This document shows, piece after piece, positions 904 through 50,440 of a DNA stretch of 64,000 nt; positions within the stretch are counted from its first letter, which is position 1; each line of letters opens with the position of its first letter. The stretch lies in assembly GCA_036834125.1 (NCBI GenBank), contig DAITOK010000004.1:4446-68445 (forward strand), in the 5' to 3' direction. The DNA comes from Chloroflexota bacterium (lineage in GTDB: Bacteria; Chloroflexota; Dehalococcoidia; GIF9; AB-539-J10). The translations under genes were made by a program, and so were the position numbers. The notes under the pieces are model-generated. The model ran no database searches, had not been told where the DNA came from, and worked only from the letters and a program-made list of their open reading frames with translations.

Positions 904-1712
904 GGGCTTATCGGACCCCTCAGCGCCTTCTTGATGATATCTTTATCGAAATAGTTGACGGACATCCCGGCATCTACGACGATGCCCTGGGCGTTAATGC
1001 CACTGGAACGCTCGCTCAGCAGAAACGCCACGGTGTTGGCTACTTCTCTTGTTGTCAAGCCTTTTTTGCGCAACGTCAACTGCTCGGCGAAGAGGTAGTA
1101 GTCCAAGTACCCAGGTATCCCTGCCGAGGCTGAAGTCTTCAAAAGTCCCGCGTTCACGGAATTAAACCGAATCTGAGAAAAAGCGCTGAAGGATTTCGCC
1201 AGAAAGCAGATAGTGGAATCCAGGGCAGCTTTTACCGGAGCCATAAAACCATAGGGTTCGGCTGCCATCTTGGTGGTTGAGATGGAGATAGTGACAACAG
1301 ATGCTTTTTCATCCAATAGGCCTTTAAACGCATTAGCAATGGCGATCAAGGAATAGCAGGAGATATCAATTGACTGCAAGAAGTCTTTCTTTCTTGTCTC
1401 GTGAAATGGCTTAAGTCCTTCTTCGTAGTTGGCAAAGGCGATAGAATGGACGATGCCATGAAGCTTGGGATACTTCTTGGCGACATCCTCCGCCAGCTTC
1501 TTTATCTCCTCCTCTCGCTCCACATCGCAAACGTAGATATCGGCAGCGGGGAGAATCTTGGCGACGCTCTCCTTCCTTGCCTCCGAGCGAACGCTGTAAA
1601 TCACATTAGCGTTAGCCTCAGTGAGAACCTCGCCCACAGTGTAAGCCACGCTCTTCTTATTCGCCACCCCGAAAACCAGAAAATTCTTGCCGGCAATATC
1701 CAGGAAGTCCAT
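900..1712 (-). CDS. fabI: enoyl-[acyl-carrier-protein] reductase (NADH), FabI family
   Basis: 270-aa SDR. The [13 protein letters not shown] region matches the FabI Tyr-x6-Lys active site, and the Gly-rich N-terminus reads [11 protein letters not shown]. Confidence 0.85.
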
Positions 1713-1738
1713 ATTTCGCTCCTTTTATCCTCGTGAAG

Positions 1739-2164
1739 TCAAGGCGCCTCTTTAGCCAGGGTGACGGTGAATTCGACGGTGACCGAGGTCTTGCCGCCAA
1801 CCGAGGCTTTGCCTTTCATGTAGTAGGCGTTGCTGATTTTTTCCACAAGCTCGGTTTCAATGTCCAAGGTATCGCCGGGCCTGACGATATTTTTGAACTT
1901 GGCGTTGTTAATTCGGGTCAGGACGGGAATGCCGCCGCTCAAGCCACCTATCATTTTGGAAAGCAAAATCGCTCCTGTTTGGAAGATGGATTCGCAGATG
2001 AGTGCTCCCGGCATGATCGGTTGCCCGGGGTAATGTCCCTGAAAAACCGGGTCATCGGGTTTTACCTCTTTGACCGTTTTGATTTTTGTTCCGCTCATCT
2101 CCACGATTCTATCCACGAATAAGAAGGGTGGGCGATGCGGTATTGCGTTGAGTATTTCCTCCAT
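1739..2164 (-). CDS. fabZ: 3-hydroxyacyl-ACP dehydratase FabZ
   Basis: Hot-dog fold motifs are PHRPPFLFVDRI and FQGHYPGQPIMPGAL. I set the start at the internal ATG (MEEILN), which sits 8 nt after a GGAGGA RBS. The longer ORF extension runs into fabG. Confidence 0.85.
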   Translation of the reverse strand: MEEILNAIPHRPPFLFVDRIVEMSGTKIKTVKEVKPDDPVFQGHYPGQPIMPGALICESIFQTGAILLSKMIGGLSGGIPVLTRINNAKFKNIVRPGDTLDIETELVEKISNAYYMKGKASVGGKTSVTVEFTVTLAKEAP

Positions 2165-40201: not shown

Positions 40202-40325
40202 AACAAGTTCTAGTTTTGCCTACTATTTCACAAAGATACACTAATGTATCCGTACTTGGATGGCTTCAAGTATGGGACTTTTATAATAAAGACTTTATGT
40301 GAATCCCCCAGGAGGTGAATTAGTT

Positions 40326-41669
40326 ATGGATGGACAGAAAGAAAAGAAGGTGATAAACCGTCTTCAATCAATGTACCCGCTCAGGAATAAAGTAAATGAG
40401 ACATACCTAAAAAGTATTGAAGCTATAAAAGCAGGCAAGCCTGCTGTTTGGGCTATGCTCAACTTCTATTATGGTGACCCAATTCTGAAAGCCATGGATA
40501 TAGAAGTGGTCTATCCTGAGAACTATGGTGCTCTTGCCGCAGCTGTAGGTGTCGCCCAGCAATACCTAGATCGAGCTATTGCTGAGGGTTTTCCTACTCA
40601 TCTTTGCGGCTATAGCCTGACCACCATAGGCTACACGGCTAGGATGATGAAGGATTTGAAAGGGCAAATACCGCCGGAAGCACCCGTTGGGGGAATGCCC
40701 AAGCCACTATTTTTGCTGTCCTCGGCAGCTATATGTGATGCAAGATACAAGTGGTTCCAAGCATTGGGGCGCTATATGGATGTTCCGGTCTGGCCATTAG
40801 AAGCTCCCATCCCCGGCATCAAAGAATTTTCAATTGGGGGCTATTATGAAAGGATGGTGGAGCTGGGAGTAAAGCACCTGAGGGACTTTGTGGCTTTTGT
40901 CGAAAAGATGGTGGGCAGGAAGATGGATTGGGACAAGCTGAACAAAATGGCGAATCTCATGATAGAGATCAATCGCGTTTGGCACGAGATCAACGAACTG
41001 CGTAAAGTAAAGCCATGCCCTATGCACAGCCGAGACTTCTGGAGTGCCATGCCTGCCGCTTTGTTCTTAGCTGGCGACCTTGAGGACTCACTGAAGCTCT
41101 ACCAGAATATGTATCAGGAGGTAAAAGAGAGGGTCAACAGCCATATGGGTGCCATCCCCAATGAGAAATACCGTTTGGTGTTTGCCGAGCTTCCTCCTTG
41201 GCACAGCCTGGGCTTTTTCGACAAACTGGCAGAGAGGGGATGGAATTTCGTCATGGAGAGCTTTGGTTATCATCCGCCCATACCCCTGGATCTCAGTAAG
41301 GTCAGTGACCCTCTTGAGCGCATTACCAGATTCAGTCTCCAATTCCTTGTTGGCTACTACGAGGATGCCCGAAAACACAACGCGATTGGCGGCACCTCTG
41401 CTTATCCTTACCTGAAGTTTGCTAAGGAATGGAGATGCGATGGAGCACTCCTTCATCCCCTCATCAGTTGCCGCAGTGCCTCGACACACCTTCCCTATGT
41501 TTCAAACATGCTCATGGAGAAGCTCAGGGTCCCCTCCTTAACCATAGAAGGTGATATCGTAGATCTTCGCTTGTTTAACCCGGAAGATGCCCTAGCTAAG
41601 GCAGAGCCATTCGAGGAAATCTTGGAACACTATAGAAAGGTCAGAAGACTGGAAGGGTTTGACTGGTGA
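40326..41669 (+). CDS. 2-hydroxyacyl-CoA dehydratase / benzoyl-CoA reductase family subunit (HgdA/BcrB-like)
   Basis: About 447 aa from ATG 40326, which sits 8 nt after AGGAGGTG. The family is recognised by overall similarity and conserved Cys residues. Confidence 0.75.
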   Translation: MDGQKEKKVINRLQSMYPLRNKVNETYLKSIEAIKAGKPAVWAMLNFYYGDPILKAMDIEVVYPENYGALAAAVGVAQQYLDRAIAEGFPTHLCGYSLTTIGYTARMMKDLKGQIPPEAPVGGMPKPLFLLSSAAICDARYKWFQALGRYMDVPVWPLEAPIPGIKEFSIGGYYERMVELGVKHLRDFVAFVEKMVGRKMDWDKLNKMANLMIEINRVWHEINELRKVKPCPMHSRDFWSAMPAALFLAGDLEDSLKLYQNMYQEVKERVNSHMGAIPNEKYRLVFAELPPWHSLGFFDKLAERGWNFVMESFGYHPPIPLDLSKVSDPLERITRFSLQFLVGYYEDARKHNAIGGTSAYPYLKFAKEWRCDGALLHPLISCRSASTHLPYVSNMLMEKLRVPSLTIEGDIVDLRLFNPEDALAKAEPFEEILEHYRKVRRLEGFDW

Positions 41670-41716
41670 TACACTTGGGTTTCAACTGACATTTCAACCG
41701 ACAAGGAGGCGCACAG

Positions 41717-42883
41717 ATGCCAGACAAAACGAAAGGTCTCAAGAAAGCTCGAGAAATTTATTTGAATCGTTCGCAGAGAGTCAGAGAGCTCAAGGCGGCG
41801 GGGAAAAGGATAATAGGCTATCCCTGTGTCTATGTGCCGCTGGAGATGCTCACCGCTCTTGACCTCATTCCCTACCGAACGTGCGGCAACATCAGGGAAC
41901 CCGTCACCGAAGCGGATAAGGCGTTGCCTAGCTCATTTTGCCCTCTCATGCGCACCTGTCTCGATTGTGCTCTGAAAGGCAAAAACGATTTTTTGGATGG
42001 TATGGCAACGATTCACTCCAGCGACCCTCAGGAAAAGACTTCTCGTGTCTGGCAATCTTATACTAACTATTCCTACTACCATTTTATAGACATGCCCATC
42101 ACCGTTCGTCCCGAAGCCCTAGAATACTTCAGAAACCAGCTAAACGATTTCAGAAAGACTCTGGAGGCTTTCACCGGGAAGAAGTTGACCAGAGACAAGC
42201 TCGAGGCAGCTATTAAAGCTCACAATGAACAGCGGACCTTAGTGAGAAAATTGTACGAACTAACGAAGCCATCACTACCATTCATCTCGGGAACAGAAAT
42301 CGTTCAGGTAGTAAAGGCTTTAGAAAGCTTGCCTGTAACTGATGCGAATGACCTTTTAACAGAGGTCATAAGCGAAGTACAAGACCGCACCGATAAACCC
42401 CAGAAAAAGCCAGCACGTCTTCTGATATGGAGTAGTACTCTTGATGATGCCGACATCATGCAAGTATTTGAGGCTAAGGCTAATGTGGTGATGAACGAAA
42501 GCTGTGGCGGTATTAGAGCTTATAGAGGTATGGTGAAATTGACCGCTGACCCATTGGAGGGGCTTGCCAACTACTATCTCAACGAAATCACCTGCGCCCG
42601 CACGTTCAGGCAGGCTACTCTCGGTGAAACCAAAAAAGACTACATTCGAGACCTCCAGAGTCGTTTTGGCTATTTCAAAGGTATCATCCAAGATTGGAAA
42701 ATCAATGGTGTCATAATGCTGCTTGTTAGATATTGTGACCCGTTTGCCTTTGAAATGCCATCGCTAAAAGATTACTTGGACAGCATTGGTGTCCCCAGCA
42801 CATATATAGAATATGACTATTCCCTAGGAACCCTAGCCCCATTAAGGATCAGGGTCGAAGCTTTCCTTGAGACGCTGAGTTAA
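41717..42883 (+). CDS. 2-hydroxyacyl-CoA dehydratase / benzoyl-CoA reductase family subunit (HgdB/BcrC-like)
   Basis: 388 aa with GYPCVYVPLEMLTALDLIP and multiple conserved Cys residues, typical of the D-component family. Confidence 0.75.
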   Translation: MPDKTKGLKKAREIYLNRSQRVRELKAAGKRIIGYPCVYVPLEMLTALDLIPYRTCGNIREPVTEADKALPSSFCPLMRTCLDCALKGKNDFLDGMATIHSSDPQEKTSRVWQSYTNYSYYHFIDMPITVRPEALEYFRNQLNDFRKTLEAFTGKKLTRDKLEAAIKAHNEQRTLVRKLYELTKPSLPFISGTEIVQVVKALESLPVTDANDLLTEVISEVQDRTDKPQKKPARLLIWSSTLDDADIMQVFEAKANVVMNESCGGIRAYRGMVKLTADPLEGLANYYLNEITCARTFRQATLGETKKDYIRDLQSRFGYFKGIIQDWKINGVIMLLVRYCDPFAFEMPSLKDYLDSIGVPSTYIEYDYSLGTLAPLRIRVEAFLETLS

Positions 42884-42906
42884 CAGTAGTCCGCGAGGAG
42901 GCTTAC

Positions 42907-43749
42907 TTGTATTTCGCTGGTGTTGATATAGGCTCAACCATGACCAAGGTTGTGCTCATAGACAAGAGCAACAACTTACTTGCAACCATCAAAGGTCCCA
43001 CCGGTCCCGAGTATCGCCAACTTGCCAACGAAGTCATGTGGCAGGCGCTTAAGCAAGCGAAGTTACGGATTGAAGATATCTCTTACATTGTAGCTACAGG
43101 CTATGGACGGCTCAATGTACCTTTCGCGGACTGCCAGATAACAGAGCTTTCTTGTCATGCCAAAGGCGTGTCCAGTCTTTTTCCCAACGTCAGGACGGCA
43201 ATTGATATAGGCGGCCAAGATGCTAAGTGCATGAAAATTGACAAAGGCAAACTCGTCAGCTTCGTCATGAACGATAAGTGTGCTGCTGGCACCGGCAGAT
43301 TTCTTGAGGTGACAGCATCTGCGCTAGACATCCGATTAGAAGACATGGGAGATATTTCCTTAAATGCCACCAAGAAAATCCACATAAGCAACTTATGCAC
43401 TGTCTTCGCCCAGCAAGAAGTAGTGAGCCTCCTTTCTCGCGGAGAAAAGCTGGAAAACATTCTAGCTGGACTGCACGATGCCTTGGCTAGCCGCGTAGCC
43501 ACACTGGCACGGCGGCTTAATATAGAGCCTGATGTAGTACTCACCGGTGGCGTGGCTAAGAATACAGGCATGGTCAGGGCAATGAAAGAAAGCTTGGGGT
43601 ACGAAATCCTTGTTCCAGACGAACCGCTCATCACCGGCGCACTTGGTGCTGCCATCCGGGCAAAGGAAATCTATATGAATGCCATGGCGGTGGGAGAGAT
43701 GCTGCCTAAAAAGACGCGACGGCTGGAAAAAGCTACCTTCTTCTGTTAG
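42907..43749 (+). CDS. acyl-CoA dehydratase activase / BadF-BadG-BcrA-BcrD family ATPase, copy 1
   Basis: 280-aa ASKHA fold with GVDIGSTMTKVV at the N-terminus and a CAAGTGRF cluster-helix motif. Confidence 0.85.
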   Translation: MYFAGVDIGSTMTKVVLIDKSNNLLATIKGPTGPEYRQLANEVMWQALKQAKLRIEDISYIVATGYGRLNVPFADCQITELSCHAKGVSSLFPNVRTAIDIGGQDAKCMKIDKGKLVSFVMNDKCAAGTGRFLEVTASALDIRLEDMGDISLNATKKIHISNLCTVFAQQEVVSLLSRGEKLENILAGLHDALASRVATLARRLNIEPDVVLTGGVAKNTGMVRAMKESLGYEILVPDEPLITGALGAAIRAKEIYMNAMAVGEMLPKKTRRLEKATFFC

Positions 43750-43757
43750 GAGCAACC

Positions 43758-44561
43758 ATGACCTGGGCTATGGGTATTGATATTGGCTCGGCATATAGCA
43801 AAGGTGTCATAATCAAAAATTTTGAGTTTGTAGCTTCATATATAGTCATATCGGGAGCCAATTATCGAGCATCTGCCGATACTATAAGGACAGAGTTATT
43901 AAGAAAGGCAAACCTTATCCAAAAAGACCTAGCCAATATTGTAGCTACTGGCTGCGGTGCTGATAATGTCTATTTTGCTAGCCAAAAGGCAAGCGACATA
44001 GTTTGCACTGCACGGGGCATAAACAATGTGTTTCCACAAGTCAGAACTGTGATTGATGTAGCCAGTCAATCCACTAGAGTAATACGGCTGAACGGAGAAG
44101 GAATTGTAACTAACTTTACCGTGAGCGAGAAATGCGCTGCTGGTGGTGGACGTTTTATTGAAGTTATCGCCAACGTCTTGAGGGTAAGTGTGAATGACTT
44201 CAGTTCGCTGGCAGCCAAATCGAAAAACCCTATTACGTTTGGTACGGGCTGTGCTGTCTTCGGCGAATCTGAGGCTATTACTAGGATAAGTGAGGGCACA
44301 TCCAAAGAAGATATTGCTGCCGGTGCTAACAAGGCTCTGGCAAGCAAGATCTCTGCTTTGGTCAAGAAGACTAAGCTAGAGGAGCCCTATGCCATCTGTG
44401 GCGGCGGCGCTCTCAACAACACTCTCATCAAAGCTATAGAGGACGAATTGAACACGAAGCTATTAACACCACCACATCCCCAATTTATTACTGCCCTTGG
44501 CGCTGCCATAATCGCCGCAACATCAGCCATACCCGAACTCAGCAAAGAAACGCAGAGCTAA
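43758..44561 (+). CDS. BadF-BadG-BcrA-BcrD family ATPase, copy 2
   Basis: 267 aa with GIDIGSAYSKGV at the N-terminus and CAAGGGRF. It is a paralog of the preceding gene and sits 8 nt downstream of it. Confidence 0.8.
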   Translation: MTWAMGIDIGSAYSKGVIIKNFEFVASYIVISGANYRASADTIRTELLRKANLIQKDLANIVATGCGADNVYFASQKASDIVCTARGINNVFPQVRTVIDVASQSTRVIRLNGEGIVTNFTVSEKCAAGGGRFIEVIANVLRVSVNDFSSLAAKSKNPITFGTGCAVFGESEAITRISEGTSKEDIAAGANKALASKISALVKKTKLEEPYAICGGGALNNTLIKAIEDELNTKLLTPPHPQFITALGAAIIAATSAIPELSKETQS

Positions 44562-45831: not shown

Positions 45832-45890
45832 CCATTAAGCCCCAACGTAAGTCCAAAGTCATAAATATCCTTTCTCTCCGAGTGTCATAG

Positions 45891-45933
45891 TACTAAATTC
45901 TGGTGCAAAACAGTACTGACAGGTGATTCCTAC
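45891..45933 (+). repeat. conserved ~45-nt motif with palindrome CAGTACTG, copy 1 (upstream of ECF sigma gene)
   Basis: tactaaattctggtgcaaaacagtactgacaggtgattcc. It matches the reverse complement of 47686-47740. Both copies are in the same orientation relative to their downstream gene. Confidence 0.65.
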
Positions 45934-45993
45934 ATGATCGATTAGCTGATATGCTGAAAACGTAGATAGTACAACCGCATAGACAGGGGCGAC

Positions 45994-46593
45994 ATGAAAG
46001 TAGCTGAACATACGTTGCGAGGTTATGAAACTCAACTAATCAAAAGATTGCGCGCGGGTGATAACGCAGCCAAAGAGGAATTTTATAACCTTTACAGGAA
46101 CAGGATTTATTTTCTGGTATCAGAGCAAGTAGGACGAAACCATGCCGTAACTGAAGACTTGGTTCAAGAAGTATTTGTTGCTGCCTTGAGTTCACTACAC
46201 AAATTCCGTGGTGACAGCCAGCTTTACACTTGGCTACGCAGTATCGCACTTCACAAAATAAACGATTATCATCGTCACCAAGCGCGAGAGCCTCAATGCA
46301 AGAAATCGCCCCCTGATTTTAGTAGCGTACAACTAGAACGAGTCTCGGACGACGAACCTGCAACCTATACTGAGATGGAGTCCGAAGAACTTCGCCAGTC
46401 AGTTAACCAAGCCTTGGCAAGTTTGCCTCAAGATTATCAAGAAGTTTTAGTGTTAAAATACCTCAAAGGTATGCCCGTGTTAGCCATAAGTCAAGTTATG
46501 GGCCGCTCACCAAAGTCAGTCGAGGGATTACTGGCACGAGCCCGGAAGGCTATGAAAGACAACTGGGAAGAGAACAATCACGACGAACTGTAA
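45994..46593 (+). CDS. ECF-type RNA polymerase sigma-70 factor (sigma-24 family)
   Basis: 199 aa with region 2 (YNLYRNRIYFLV...DLVQEVFV) and region 4 (VLVLKYLKGMPVLAISQVMGRSPKSVEGLLARARK). Confidence 0.85.
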   Translation: MKVAEHTLRGYETQLIKRLRAGDNAAKEEFYNLYRNRIYFLVSEQVGRNHAVTEDLVQEVFVAALSSLHKFRGDSQLYTWLRSIALHKINDYHRHQAREPQCKKSPPDFSSVQLERVSDDEPATYTEMESEELRQSVNQALASLPQDYQEVLVLKYLKGMPVLAISQVMGRSPKSVEGLLARARKAMKDNWEENNHDEL

Positions 46594-46636
46594 ATTTCAG
46601 CCTACACCAGCACAGGTAGAAAAACTAGGACGACAA

Positions 46637-47653
46637 CTAAGACACAATCTTCTTTACTGCCTGGAAAGCATTAACCAAACCATGCCCAACGCCTGATGTT
46701 GCCATAGGAGTGCAACTATTTTCAATTGCCCAGCGTACTTCGTCATTGAGCAAGCCATTGCCGTTACTATCTTCAGCAACGCTGAAAACCAAGGCAGCTA
46801 CTCCCGAGATGTGAGCTGCAGCTGCTGAGGTGCCGGTCTTGTACCCATATTGGTTGTCAGGCAATTCAGAATAGATATTAAAACCGGGGGCAGCTACATC
46901 TACCCAATCGCCATAGCTGGATAACAAAGCTAATGAATCATCTGCGTTGGTGCCTGCCACGGCAACACAATTAGCATAATAAGCTGGATAAGAAGGCAAC
47001 GACTTCCCCTTGTTGCCTGCTGCAGCTATAAGTATAGCTCCCCGGCTCCACGCGTAGTTGACTGCTTTCTGCAGTTCCAGCGACTCTGTCATGGATAAAC
47101 TCAAGTTTATAATCTTAGCTCCGCGGTCCACCGCCCAAATGATGCCCTTGGCGACTGCCGATGGTTCACACCTTCCGTCATCGTCAGCTACCTTCACGTT
47201 CATTAGCCGACATTCCGGAGCTACAGCAACAATAGTACCTGCCATGTGAGTTCCGTGCCCGTACAGGTCGTCGCTGGTGGGACTGTTGCTAAAATTAACT
47301 TCTACTACCACTCTATCAGCCAAATCTGGATTGCCTTTATCAATACCAGTATCCAACACAGCCACTACAATAGACTTGTCTCCCGTGGTTATCTGCCAGG
47401 CTTTCGTCACCTCTATCTTCTTTATCCCCCATCGCTTACTTAAATAACTATCATCCACAGAATACGTTGTCTTCGGAGAAGAGTTATAACTTGAGGAATC
47501 GCTATTGTTCACTTGCGATTCATAGTAGACTGGCACATAGCTATAAGCGGACGCGCTTTCCGTCGGAAATAAGACATCGTACACCATGCCGCCCACGAGT
47601 ATCACCTCAACCAAAGTAAGAGCTATAGCTAGACGATATTTTAGGTCCTTCAT
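46637..47653 (-). CDS. S8-family subtilisin-like serine peptidase with N-terminal membrane anchor
   Basis: The catalytic triad context is VAVLDTGID, HGTHMAG and GTSAAAAHISG. After MKDLKYR the protein has a hydrophobic N-terminal segment LAIALTLVEVILVGGMV. The start is ambiguous among 47653, 47662 and 47695. Confidence 0.8.
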   Translation of the reverse strand: MKDLKYRLAIALTLVEVILVGGMVYDVLFPTESASAYSYVPVYYESQVNNSDSSSYNSSPKTTYSVDDSYLSKRWGIKKIEVTKAWQITTGDKSIVVAVLDTGIDKGNPDLADRVVVEVNFSNSPTSDDLYGHGTHMAGTIVAVAPECRLMNVKVADDDGRCEPSAVAKGIIWAVDRGAKIINLSLSMTESLELQKAVNYAWSRGAILIAAAGNKGKSLPSYPAYYANCVAVAGTNADDSLALLSSYGDWVDVAAPGFNIYSELPDNQYGYKTGTSAAAAHISGVAALVFSVAEDSNGNGLLNDEVRWAIENSCTPMATSGVGHGLVNAFQAVKKIVS

Positions 47654-47685
47654 ATATATCATATATAACCAACTGCGAAAGCCGA

Positions 47686-47740
47686 TAGAAATCACCTATC
47701 GGTACCGTTTCAGTACTGTTTTGCTTAGAATTTAGTAATA
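47686..47740 (-). repeat. conserved motif with palindrome CAGTACTG, copy 2 (upstream of the subtilisin gene)
   Basis: The plus strand reads atcacctatcggtaccgtttcagtactgttttgcttagaatttagtaata. Its reverse complement matches copy 1 (tactaaattct..gcaaaacagtactga..aggtgatt). Confidence 0.65.
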
Positions 47741-47965
47741 TGACCTTTCACCTAGGACTCGCGGGCTAGGAATCACGTTCCTGCGTAGCACTGCGTATAG
47801 AACCTATGTTCCAGGTGAGGAGAGCAGCGACTGCTTTGAATTTGTCGTTGGTCATTCAGCGCATCGTTAAGTGCGACAGCCGCCTGAAAACAATGGAACT
47901 TGTAAGGGAAGAGATACTGGAGGAAGTGTTGCCTGAGGCCAGAACTTGGCTTCAGTGGTTACTGA

Positions 47966-47995
47966 TTGACATATAAGACAAAAGTTTGCTATAAT
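47966..47995 (+). promoter_or_regulatory. sigma70-consensus promoter upstream of the large surface esterase gene
   Basis: TTGACA (47966-47971), an 18-nt spacer, and TATAAT (47990-47995). This leaves a leader of about 270 nt before ATG 48269. Confidence 0.5.
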
Positions 47996-48268: not shown

Positions 48269-50440
48269 ATGGCATTAAAAAGATATTGTATTATTGCTGT
48301 TTTGGTAATTGTCGCGTTGCTGTTGCCCATAGGGGGTCAAGTTGGGGCTGGACAAGGCAACATAACGCTCACGCTAGATTGGATGATGTATGGCGGATAC
48401 AATCGTACATATGGATATTACGTCCCGACAGGTTACAACTCTAGCGGAGGCCCGGTTCCTCTGCTATTTTCGTTTCATGGTCTGGGCAGCAATGGACAGG
48501 CACAAGAGTACTTAACCAGCTTTGCTGAACTTGCCGAACAGGAAGGCTTTATTGCCGTATTTCCGTACGCTACGAATATACCCGGATACCATCCCATCCT
48601 GCCAACGTGGCTTCCCAATTACGGCATTCAGTGGAACCTGGATGGACCAGGGTCAATGCAATACTACTACGATGTTGATGACCTGGGATTTGTTTCGGCG
48701 TTAGTTGACAAATTTACCGCCGACTACAACATCACCCGTGGTCGCATATACGCAACCGGGATGTCCAACGGCGCCATGTTTTCATACTTCCTAGCCATGA
48801 AGCTGCCTGGCGTCTTTGCTGGCATTGCAGCAGTAACCTCTCCAATGACTCTAAATATGTGGGAGTACGATTTCGACACAGATGTTGGCTGTCCGGTAAC
48901 CGTGATTTTGATACAGGGCACACATGACCCCATCGTTCCTTATAATGGCCTGCCAAACGTAACCGGATCGGTTGACCAGACTATTGACTATTGGAAAGAT
49001 GCCAATAATATAACGACGGAACCAGTGGAAACGACCTTTGACGGATATCCGAATGACCCGACGAAAGTTTACCGCTATGTTTATGGTGGGGGTGCTGACA
49101 ATACCGAGGTAATACTGTATAAGGTTGACTTGGGCGGACACACTTGGCCCGGATCATATCAATATGCTCCTGAGGCAGTCATTGGCAAGACCTCTTACGA
49201 GATCAACGCTACTGAGAAGATATGGGAACATTTCGAAGCTCATTCATTACCACCGCTACCGCCTGTTCGAAGGTCGCCAAAAGTGGTAACACCGGGAGAA
49301 GAATTTGAGGTAAAAATTAGCTTCGCTGCCCCTGAGGGTGCATTCCAGAACATCAACCTCACTGACAGTGCTCCGACGGGCTGGACAGTAAGCGTTAATA
49401 CTACCTGGCCTGACCCGGATGCAGACACAGCCCAGACTCCAGCGGCTAATCAAGCGCAATATATTTGGAACGGCCCCTACAACAATAACACATGGTTCAC
49501 AGCAGTTTACAAGGTGAAGGTGCCTGATGACGCTGCACCCGGGAACTACACTTTCAGTGGTTTACTCAGGTACTCCGTTGGCGCAAACAACCAAGAGGCA
49601 GCAGTGAGAGGCAACACCCGTGTGAGAGTGGTGGACAGATATACTCTCACTGTCAATAGCGCCGCCGGGGGCAGTGTCACCATGCCAGGCACAGGGAACT
49701 TCACTTATCGCGGTGGAAAGGTGGTCTACCTGGCTGCTACACCCAGTTCTGGCTATAAATTCAGCCAATGGTCAGGCGATAATAGCACCGTGCAGATTGT
49801 TGGTACGGACCCCAAGTACGCCATCATTACCATGAACGGCAACTACACAATCACCGCCGAATTTGAGAAGATACCACCAACCGTTAGTACAACAACTATC
49901 TATTCCGGCGATGTCGGAACTGATTCGGCTAACCTCAAGATGTCATATACCATGGGTGGCTACGGTTCGGTAGATGTCCGCTTCGCATATAAGAAGTCCA
50001 CTGACACGGAATGGAGTAATACCTCCTGGACATCCAGATCGGCAGCAGGAACATACAACCAAACAGTTACCGGTCTTAGCCCTGCTACAACTTATCAGTA
50101 TAAGGCGCAACTCAGATACGACAGCATTGTGATTGAGGGGGCTGTGAAGCAGTTCACGACAGCGGCAATACCGGGCGGCGGAGGAGGTGGATGCTTCATT
50201 GCCACGGCAGCCTACGGAACCCCCACCGCAGTACAGCTCAACGTGTTGCGAGAGTTCCGAGATGCTGTGTTGCTGAAGAGTGCCCTAGGCTCTCGACTTG
50301 TTGACCTCTACTACAAAGCCAGCCCGCCGATTGCGGAATTCATATCACAGCACGACGTCCTGATGACCGTCGTCAGGGAGCTTCTAGTGGAGCCGATTGT
50401 GTGGTTGCTTAAAGCTACGAGCGTTATATGGCACAGCTGA
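48269..50440 (+). CDS. secreted multi-domain protein with five domains in series
   Basis: The 723-aa protein starts with the signal peptide MALKRYCIIAVLVIVALLLPIGG. The first domain is a PHB-depolymerase-family esterase with the GxSxG lipase box GMSNGAMFSYF and an HG upstream. A beta-sandwich domain follows. Next is a divergent InlB B-repeat (YTLTVNSAAGGSVTMPG...YLAATPSSGYKFSQWSGD). A fibronectin-III-like domain follows. After a Gly6 linker the last domain starts with CFIATAAYGT. Confidence 0.8.
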   Translation: MALKRYCIIAVLVIVALLLPIGGQVGAGQGNITLTLDWMMYGGYNRTYGYYVPTGYNSSGGPVPLLFSFHGLGSNGQAQEYLTSFAELAEQEGFIAVFPYATNIPGYHPILPTWLPNYGIQWNLDGPGSMQYYYDVDDLGFVSALVDKFTADYNITRGRIYATGMSNGAMFSYFLAMKLPGVFAGIAAVTSPMTLNMWEYDFDTDVGCPVTVILIQGTHDPIVPYNGLPNVTGSVDQTIDYWKDANNITTEPVETTFDGYPNDPTKVYRYVYGGGADNTEVILYKVDLGGHTWPGSYQYAPEAVIGKTSYEINATEKIWEHFEAHSLPPLPPVRRSPKVVTPGEEFEVKISFAAPEGAFQNINLTDSAPTGWTVSVNTTWPDPDADTAQTPAANQAQYIWNGPYNNNTWFTAVYKVKVPDDAAPGNYTFSGLLRYSVGANNQEAAVRGNTRVRVVDRYTLTVNSAAGGSVTMPGTGNFTYRGGKVVYLAATPSSGYKFSQWSGDNSTVQIVGTDPKYAIITMNGNYTITAEFEKIPPTVSTTTIYSGDVGTDSANLKMSYTMGGYGSVDVRFAYKKSTDTEWSNTSWTSRSAAGTYNQTVTGLSPATTYQYKAQLRYDSIVIEGAVKQFTTAAIPGGGGGGCFIATAAYGTPTAVQLNVLREFRDAVLLKSALGSRLVDLYYKASPPIAEFISQHDVLMTVVRELLVEPIVWLLKATSVIWHS

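Follow-up and report, generated by a model that had tools for sequence, protein, structure and literature searches.

What reads the sequence that stands in front of both genes of a convergent pair in a Dehalococcoidia genome, and which genes does it control? The pair lies in a 64-kb stretch of contig DAITOK010000004.1 from a Chloroflexota bacterium (hereafter, the window) and consists of a gene for an extracytoplasmic function (ECF) sigma factor and a gene for a membrane-anchored subtilisin, each preceded by a copy of the same motif of ~50 nt. In our view, the motif is likely to form the upstream half of a regulated promoter, its operator; this conserved promoter would combine a core of the housekeeping-sigma type with sites for an oligomerizing DNA-binding protein and serve a regulon of envelope and signaling genes. 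The Dehalococcoidia are abundant and mostly uncultured, and their regulation of transcription is almost wholly undescribed; the module constitutes a sequence signature that can be searched for.

The motif occurs twice in the 64 kb, once upstream of each gene, and nowhere else in it. Copy A (45884-45932, plus strand) reads GTCATAGTACTAAATTCT-GGT-GCAAAACAGTACTGA-C-AGGTGATTCCTA and lies 59-103 nt 5' of the sigma ATG at 45994. Copy B (47744-47686, minus strand) reads GTCATATTACTAAATTCT-AA-GCAAAACAGTACTGA-aacggtaccgat-AGGTGATTTCTA, with AACGGTACCGAT as the segment between GCAAAACAGTACTGA and AGGTGATTTCTA, and lies 33-87 nt 5' of the subtilisin ATG at 47653. The copies have exact blocks of 11, 15 and 12 nt (the last including a Y) in common, each confined to these two places in the window, with a chance expectation of ~1e-4 for the 15-mer. 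This confirms what an earlier note on this DNA had reported, namely a motif upstream of both genes in matching orientation and at similar distances, which agree with ours. The same note had suggested that the palindrome at the motif's center is the site of a dimeric regulator. An exact 11-nt insertion in copy B repeats the AAAC-GTAC unit and yields two octamer palindromes, CAGTACTG and CGGTACCG. Across related genomes, the proximal CGGTACCG on the subtilisin side is retained in 20 of 21, and the sigma-side octamer (CAGTACTG) is palindromic in only 8 of 25, AAAACAGTAC being conserved instead. The unit is therefore better written as nAAAC(A/G)KTACn than as a palindrome: a protein-binding site remains likely, and what is conserved in it are phased 11-bp repeats. 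The additional unit of copy B (D box) is missing from copy A and present in all but one (L014) of the 21 subtilisin loci; the sigma-side A box is kept as GTCATAGTACTAAWTTCT in 25 loci.

Table 1. Promoter elements and genes of the sigma-subtilisin locus (coordinates of the window; negative numbers are positions in the predicted promoters)
Feature	Position	Strand	Remarks
Copy A, A-box region GTCATAGTACTAAATTCT	45884-45901	+	GTAC at 45890-45893; ~−72 to −65
Copy A, C box GCAAAACAGTAC	45905-45916	+	~−57 to −46
Copy A, E box GGTGATTC (45922-45929)	45922-45932	+	overlaps −35-like TTCCTA (45927-45932)
Copy A, predicted extended −10 TGATATGCT	45947-45955	+	hexamer 45950-45955, TG 45947-45948; 17 bp after −35
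Copy B, A-box region GTCATATTACTAAATTCT	47727-47744	-	kept as GGTCRCATTACYAAATTCT in 20/21 subtilisin loci
Copy B, distal C box GCAAAACAGTAC	47713-47724	-	
Copy B, D box TGAAACGGTAC	47702-47712	-	additional 11-nt C-type unit, spaced one helical turn from the distal C box
Copy B, E box GGTGATTT (47696-47689)	47686-47696	-	overlaps −35-like TTTCTA (47691-47686)
Copy B, predicted −10 region TGGTTATATA	47662-47671	-	−10 at ~47668-47662, predicted from sequence
ECF (group 4) sigma factor, 199 aa	45994-46593	+	Pfam Sigma70_r2, Sigma70_r4_2, Sigma70_ECF
S8 subtilisin with N-terminal membrane anchor, 338 aa	46637-47653	-	Peptidase_S8, E=5.6e-43
Two conserved secreted/membrane proteins, 197 and 186 aa	44678-45831	+	always directly upstream of the sigma promoter (synteny)
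Surface protein with polyhydroxybutyrate (PHB)-depolymerase-like esterase domain, InlB B-repeat and CFI-box-CTERM	48269-50440	+	divergent from subtilisin

The arrangement is conserved well beyond the window. Searches with the sigma protein, which matches NCBIfam at superfamily level only, returned 825 homologs, the closest from Dehalococcoidia metagenome-assembled genomes (MAGs); those listed at 72-75% identity come from MAGs labeled Dehalococcoidia or Chloroflexi. Across more than 20 different Dehalococcoidia genomes, the motif was found upstream of the sigma gene in 25 loci and upstream of the subtilisin gene in 21, in loci where the sigma proteins are 58-75% identical to that of the window and the flanking non-coding DNA has diverged. 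Contigs retrieved via five sigma homologs share the same gene order, with two genes for small secreted or membrane proteins, sigma, the convergent subtilisin and a divergent large surface protein, and all of these contigs carry the motif upstream of sigma and, apart from one locus that has no subtilisin gene (L012), upstream of the subtilisin. The element thus stands before both genes, in matching orientation and register, in every orthologous locus examined, which supports the co-regulation proposed earlier; judged from the sequence, sigma and subtilisin are very probably co-regulated.

The same loci bear on the suggestion that the two copies, being inverted, serve as recombination sites for a 1.8-kb cassette that is invertible or mobile. 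The copies are indeed inverted around a discrete segment, and in one related genome (L001) a gene for a large serine recombinase is located ~1 kb 5' of sigma. Of ~25 loci, however, none is inverted: in every case the two small membrane-protein genes flank the segment on the sigma side and not on the subtilisin side, and hybrid copies were not seen. The spacing varies from 1.8 to 2.2 kb, one locus (L012) keeps the sigma copy without a subtilisin gene, and the other copies are single, at unlinked genes, and always in promoter orientation and register. In addition, the window holds no recombinase or regulator gene in the neighborhood of the pair, as Pfam, NCBIfam and the neighboring genes bear out; the same holds for the reported lack of an adjacent anti-sigma gene. 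The opposite orientation of the copies follows from two convergent genes each having the promoter, and recombination as their function can be put close to nil. On the contig concerned (CAVYNS010000003.1, 737 kb; L001 3490-5004, L002 1264-2778), a 504-aa large serine recombinase is encoded where the first small membrane-protein gene would be expected, and immediately precedes the second such gene and sigma; it was not seen in the other loci and is probably an integrated element.

We then searched for the motif more widely with the strict pattern RAAACRGTACNRNYRGGTGATTY in one genome per species (185,579 genomes, the window's own genome not being among them). The scan returned 61 loci, about 40 of them in Dehalococcoidia or Chloroflexota MAGs (38 assemblies). 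The remaining ~20 fall in unrelated taxa, against ~17 expected by chance, and several are clearly coding sequence. Matches in Bellilinea and Bacillus were discarded as conserved coding sequence (MKRYNQVILDG..., transposase-like). A scan of a viral collection gave a single chance match, inside coding sequence. The genes downstream of the motif form four classes: sigma (~20 loci), subtilisin (~17 loci), surface proteins, and small proteins with a winged helix-turn-helix (wHTH). The window has only two copies, and those found elsewhere all stand before a gene, share its orientation and keep a constant register to a −10 element, which does not fit a miniature mobile element or a repeat dispersed over unrelated intergenic regions.

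To define the promoter, instances were aligned on the GGTGATTY block. In every gene class, the E box is followed at exactly 20 nt by a −10-like hexamer, which usually has a TGn before it. This hexamer reads TGATATTCT, TGATATGCT or TGCTATGTT in the sigma class (25/25; TG[ACG]TAT[GT][CT]T at the exact offset in all 25 loci, the −10 itself also being given as TAT[GTC][CT]T), TGYTATATA or TGCTAAATA in the subtilisin class (TG[CT]TA[TA]A[TA]A at the −10 offset), TGCTATATT or TGTTACAGT in the surface-protein class, and TGCTATACT, TATCAT, TAGAGT or TATGGT in other loci. Exactly 17 bp separate it from a −35-like hexamer made up of the last three bases of the E block and the next three, which is TTCCCA, TTCTCA or TTCACA (TTC[CTA]CA) in the sigma class and TTTACC or TTCACA (TTYACM) in the wHTH class. 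The module as a whole comprises an A box (GTACTAAW) at ~−72 to −65, near −70; a C box (AAAAC(A/G)KTAC) at −55 to −46, in one to three units 10-11 bp apart; an E box (GGKGATTY) that spans −40 to −33 and overlaps the −35; and a core of TTCNCA, a 17-bp spacer and TAnnnT, often TGn-extended. Between one and three 11-nt units are present, and their register to the E box is constant; three tandem units are found in L038 and L046, and the sigma locus L056 has one additional unit.

Base frequencies were calculated from 124 unique instances recovered with a relaxed pattern, for positions that the pattern does not force. A is found at −54 to −52 in 94-100%, C at −51 in 83%, A at −43 in 79% and T at −42 in 82%; T/A at −71/−70 reaches 73-74%, C at −31 65% and A at −30 55%. 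Around the −10, the values are 61% for G at −14, 72% for T at −12, 77% for A at −11 and 60% for T at −7. The −10 is much less conserved than the 23-bp core that spans −55 to −33. TGn is found in 25/25 sigma loci and in nearly all subtilisin and surface-protein loci (canonical, or displaced by 1 nt in a few), and is absent in many wHTH loci. With the −10 included, a relaxed pattern of the module gave 88 matches in 939 kb of sequence versus 1 in shuffled sequence, and within wHTH loci it matched only in front of the wHTH gene. The small membrane-protein and large surface-protein genes of the same loci have plain promoters of the form TTGACA-17-(TGn)TAnnAT without the boxes; the lineage's housekeeping polymerase therefore reads such sites.

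These features allowed us to assess the idea that it is the neighboring ECF sigma factor itself that recognizes the motif as its target promoter, with GAAAC or GGTGA as −35 and an unusual −10; sigma would then autoregulate, and both the protease and the surface proteins would be driven by it. Genes for ECF sigma factors are, as a rule, autoregulated through the promoter immediately 5' of them, and the regulons of these factors serve envelope functions. In keeping with this, the motif lies upstream of sigma in all loci and is common to other genes of the regulon, the C box (GAAAC/AAAAC) resembles ECF −35 elements, and sigma is the sole DNA-binding protein of the conserved cluster. However, the sequence 16/17 nt past AAAC (TCnnA) is not conserved, leaving GAAAC without a downstream partner element, and the sequence 16/17 nt past GGTGA (−19 to −13) has an information content of only 0.1-0.5 bit, the bases that follow the E box differing both among classes and inside them. 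The element that is conserved, TAnnnT with TGn, lies 23 nt past GGTGA and has sigma-70 geometry; TGn is read by region 3, which ECF sigma factors lack. Moreover, an 11-nt insertion parts the distal AAAAC from the E box in the subtilisin copy, and the module heads wHTH operons, including one with another ECF sigma and its anti-sigma, in assemblies for which the strict scan gave no sigma-class copy. With a sigma-70-type −10 at 17 bp from TTCNCA and no conserved ECF-type −10, the proposed autoregulation and control of the protease by sigma through the motif appear unlikely. Other promoter types fared no better. GGTGA(T) with a SigR-like GYTG −10 was rejected, as GYTG occurs in three classes only and coincides with the TGn of the extended −10; the wHTH class does not have it, nor do L024, L031, L041 and L055. 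A SigD/FliA-like −10 (GCTGATAT resembles GCCGATAT) lacks a TAAA −35 and is limited to the sigma class, and a sigma-54 −24/−12 reading did not fit.

If the core is competent alone, as it looks, the boxes might act without a dedicated regulator, as phased A-tracts (an UP-like or curved-DNA enhancer) or as a discriminator for a second housekeeping-like sigma. The AAAA tracts that recur every 11 bp just upstream of the −35 would suit such a role. Against it, the most conserved bases are in G/C-containing stretches (GTAC, GGKGA) and not in A/T tracts, canonical promoters in the same loci lack the boxes, and their restriction to a coherent gene set suggests specific control; we regard an intrinsic role as improbable. 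A methylation switch at GTAC is also unlikely, given that KTAC (ATTAC) substitutes freely. A further alternative is that the motif acts as RNA, as a common 5' leader structure or a small hairpin of GTAC repeats. The GTAC units can pair (GTACYG-AAA-CGGTAC), and a terminator-like hairpin had been flagged at 47700-47718 (+), which we attribute to the self-complementarity of GTAC. However, the motif lies upstream of the predicted −10 and is thus probably untranscribed, no Rfam match was found in the window, pairing is lost where the repeats read GGTGGC or GGTGCT (L046), and both the 11-nt steps in copy number and the fixed distance to the −10 are features of DNA. We therefore consider a function as RNA very unlikely.

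The best reading of the motif is as the operator half of a regulated sigma-70 promoter. The core outconserves the −10, its units lie one turn apart and vary in number, and for these reasons we favor an oligomerizing protein that abuts the −35. In the model, the A, C and E boxes lie on one face of the helix and are joined to a core that would be read by the housekeeping sigma-70/SigA, and a sequence-specific protein would oligomerize along the phased boxes, touching RNA polymerase or competing with it at the −35. The protein bound there would co-regulate the ECF sigma, the membrane subtilisin, CFI-box-CTERM surface proteins and wHTH-headed operons. The ECF sigma, which has no anti-sigma partner, would be an output of the circuit, controlled through its own transcription, and not the reader of the motif. 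As to the sign of the regulation, activation is suggested by boxes that extend upstream from −33, and we lean slightly toward it. Repression by occlusion of the −35 is suggested by the way in which the boxes, as at CarH operators, overlap the −35 of a core promoter that is fairly good in itself; it is the less favored sign, although a serious contender.

The other genes of the regulon provide a candidate for this protein. The module precedes a 70-80-aa MerR-type winged-helix protein (MPVTINGQTYYRT...; Pfam MerR_1, HTH_17), which is encoded at the head of three types of operon: with a receiver protein and a PilT-like ATPase, with a small protein and a (multi-)PAS sensor, and, in a single instance, with another ECF sigma plus its anti-sigma. 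At E<=1e-5 we counted 3771 family members, whose recognition helix and wing are invariant. To sample it by protein similarity alone, we collected 80 metagenome loci, corresponding to 73 distinct upstream regions; C and E boxes were present 54-69 nt before the wHTH ATG in 55 of the 73, compared with 23 of 1736 control windows. Genomes can carry several copies, and two paralogs on one 338-kb contig (L155, L156) have nearly identical promoters. Along with L026, L030 and L031, these two genes head different signaling operons, and each has ~150 nt of near-identical upstream sequence. The AlphaFold model of the protein (pLDDT 80.7) matches the DNA-binding domains of RacA, NmlR, CarH and MtaN and, more weakly, BldC. 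As the most widespread gene behind the module and one with the right fold, the wHTH family is the obvious and best candidate for the regulator, an assignment that we make tentatively.

The closest known systems are in line with such an arrangement. In the CarH/CarA operators (P_carH/P_crt), direct repeats of 11 bp are arrayed along one DNA face; there are three to five of them, depending on the promoter, one contains the −35 element, and they are bound by MerR-type wHTH domains (PMC9304148). The module resembles these operators in its one-turn direct repeats, their variable number and their reach to the −35, and the candidate wHTH model superimposes on the CarH DNA-binding domain with a TM score of 0.73-0.74. 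In contrast, the CarH consensus is nnnnTnnACAn, as opposed to nAAAC(A/G)KTACn, and CarH is a repressor with a B12 light-sensing domain, whereas the wHTH proteins have 70-80 aa and no sensor domain, and are candidates for binding. The 68-aa MerR-like BldC of Streptomyces binds head-to-tail and cooperatively to two to four direct repeats one turn apart and controls developmental regulators, including sigma-related genes (PMC5859096). Like the proteins described here, it is a minimal MerR-type wHTH without an effector domain, with a weak fold match (TM 0.55/0.65). Unlike them, its repeat is AATTnnnnC, and it is not among the PDB sequence matches of the wHTH family (no significant similarity), whose members retain a helix at the C terminus and resemble the RacA and NmlR domains more closely. 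PhoB (at pho boxes), OmpR and SARP regulators use 10-11-bp direct repeats that end at or overlap a weak −35, with an ordinary −10 and further copies upstream. Their repeat sequences are unrelated to those of the module, and no response-regulator or SARP gene is linked to it. ECF sigma factors can also be under transcriptional rather than anti-sigma control, such as Streptomyces sigE via CseB and HrpL via HrpRS. The window sigma would be similar in having no adjacent anti-sigma and a promoter that carries, by our prediction, sites for another regulator; it differs in that the regulators of sigE and HrpL are named ones, and in that its own family is a superfamily-level NCBIfam match. Promoters of the sigma-70 type regulated from phased operators are thus of a well-known kind. 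This particular module, the regulon it serves and the wHTH family seem not to have been described before, and we found no description of the motif, the sigma-subtilisin pairing or CFI-box-CTERM in the searchable literature.

Several observations weigh against the regulated-promoter reading. The ECF sigma itself is the only DNA-binding protein encoded in the conserved cluster, and a search of the window, and of 4-10 kb around each sigma locus, turned up no wHTH gene. In the strict scan, the assemblies with wHTH-class copies and those with sigma- or subtilisin-class copies are disjoint, such that the module heads wHTH operons in assemblies that have no sigma or subtilisin copy by the strict pattern; nor did a long contig carry both a sigma and a wHTH gene among the best 120 listed of each family. 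The boxes match neither the CarH (nnnnTnnACAn) nor the BldC (AATTnnnnC) repeat consensus on either strand, and the −10 is moderately conserved, reading CACTAT in one wHTH subgroup. Finally, the search patterns themselves prescribed several core positions (KTAC and the greater part of the E box), which makes their invariance partly circular; the unbiased sets are those selected by protein, namely the sigma-homolog contigs and the wHTH loci chosen by protein similarity.

Should the regulated-promoter reading hold, the module would join an orphan ECF sigma, a membrane protease, the uncharacterized CFI-box-CTERM proteins and a very large family of tiny DNA-binding proteins in one testable regulon, and would suggest a route by which an ECF sigma without an anti-sigma is controlled, through its own transcription. 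It also supplies concrete promoters and a candidate regulator for work in vitro and for reading metatranscriptomes. A bolder version, which we find rather unlikely as a whole, is that the boxes are the operator of the stand-alone 70-80-aa MerR-type wHTH family, which would polymerize on phased KTAC repeats, autoregulate its own operons and act as the master switch of an envelope program in sediment Dehalococcoidia, comprising the anti-sigma-less ECF sigma, the leaderless subtilisin and CFI-box-CTERM proteins, possibly with the subtilisin processing the last of these.

The surface-protein class provides a view of how the promoter may have spread. The module precedes signal-peptide surface proteins with InlB B-repeats in five loci (L015, L016, L038, L048, L050), and the two complete proteins among those driven by it both end in CFI-box-CTERM. 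Their first codons (L050, L048, L038) resemble those of the window subtilisin (47653-47600, minus strand), encoding MKKLKYLAIAL..., and they share with the subtilisin a promoter variant that has an extra 11-nt unit and a GGATTGGATGG spacer. Because both the variant and the first codons are common to the two groups, the sequences suggest that promoter and 5' coding end were duplicated together as a cassette. The surface protein of the window (NF041770 for its CFI-box-CTERM, E=1.5e-25) belongs to a class that carries the module elsewhere, although its own gene has a consensus sigma-70 promoter instead, a perfect TTGACA-18-TGnTATAAT at 47966-47995, ~270 nt before the start at 48269, with an unusually long leader. 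In L001, L004, L007 and L010, the corresponding leader contains a hairpin (AAATCCC...GGGATTT) followed by a T-run, resembling a terminator or attenuator, together with several CTAGTAC/AAGTAC elements. Two more elements lie at 47767-47778 (minus strand) and 47752-47761, with another E-box-like sequence (ACGTGATTCCTA) ~30-80 nt 5' of copy B, within the imperfect palindrome AGGAACGTGATTCCT. The other, AGTCCTAGGT, is kept upstream of the subtilisin module in orthologs and returns as an inverted repeat (GTCCTAGT...ACTAGGAC) beside the surface-protein promoter. In two MAGs labeled Chloroflexia (L024, ~1640-1760, minus strand, and L063), the module with a TGCTATACT −10 is followed by no gene and by a predicted transcript of ~70 nt that includes CUCCUCC and stops at a strong intrinsic terminator (GGCCCCTG...CAGGGGCC TTTTTTT); this transcript is a candidate small RNA under the same control.

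The predicted starts give the two genes of the pair different leaders. Transcription of sigma is predicted from the sequence to begin at ~45960-45964 (plus strand), so its leader would be ~30 nt long, with AGGGG as ribosome-binding site. For the subtilisin, whose nearest NCBIfam model is mycosin (score below the model cutoff), the start codon is the ATG at 47653, a position kept in orthologs. The GTG at 47695, which opens the longest open reading frame, was rejected because it lies inside the motif and orthologs begin at the equivalent of 47653. This ATG is only 8-9 nt beyond the predicted −10 (8-12 nt in the subtilisin class), and there is no Shine-Dalgarno sequence, which is why the subtilisin mRNA, with a predicted start at ~47653-47657 (minus strand), is probably leaderless or nearly so. 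In the sigma loci L004-L070, a hairpin is possible in the 5' untranslated region, ~5-30 nt past the predicted start (UAUUAC...GUAAUA, UGCUGCG...CGUAGCA, UUACGUG...CACGUAA). Drawn by hand, it pairs 76.6% of cells with three pairs doubly changed and is weakly supported; RNAalifold predicts no consensus fold, and a clear equivalent is missing at 45960-45993 of the window.

The genes around the pair encode an aminotransferase, a 2-hydroxyacyl-CoA dehydratase with activators, PolX, an enoyl-CoA hydratase and a valyl-tRNA synthetase (ValRS). The two small genes directly upstream of the sigma promoter have a canonical promoter of their own (TTGACA-17-TATAAT), and Pfam and NCBIfam scans detected no anti-sigma domain in their products. 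The first protein has a signal peptide and a beta-rich domain; the second combines a signal peptide with an Ig-like domain (weak fn3_5/FixG_C matches) and a membrane anchor at the C terminus. The two look like a surface-fiber subunit and its anchor rather than an anti-sigma. Directly upstream of them, at 40299-44561, lie a 2-hydroxyacyl-CoA dehydratase-like pair (HGD-D) and two BcrAD/BadFG-type activator ATPases, a cluster that is syntenic with the sigma cluster in several, though not all, related genomes (L004, L007).

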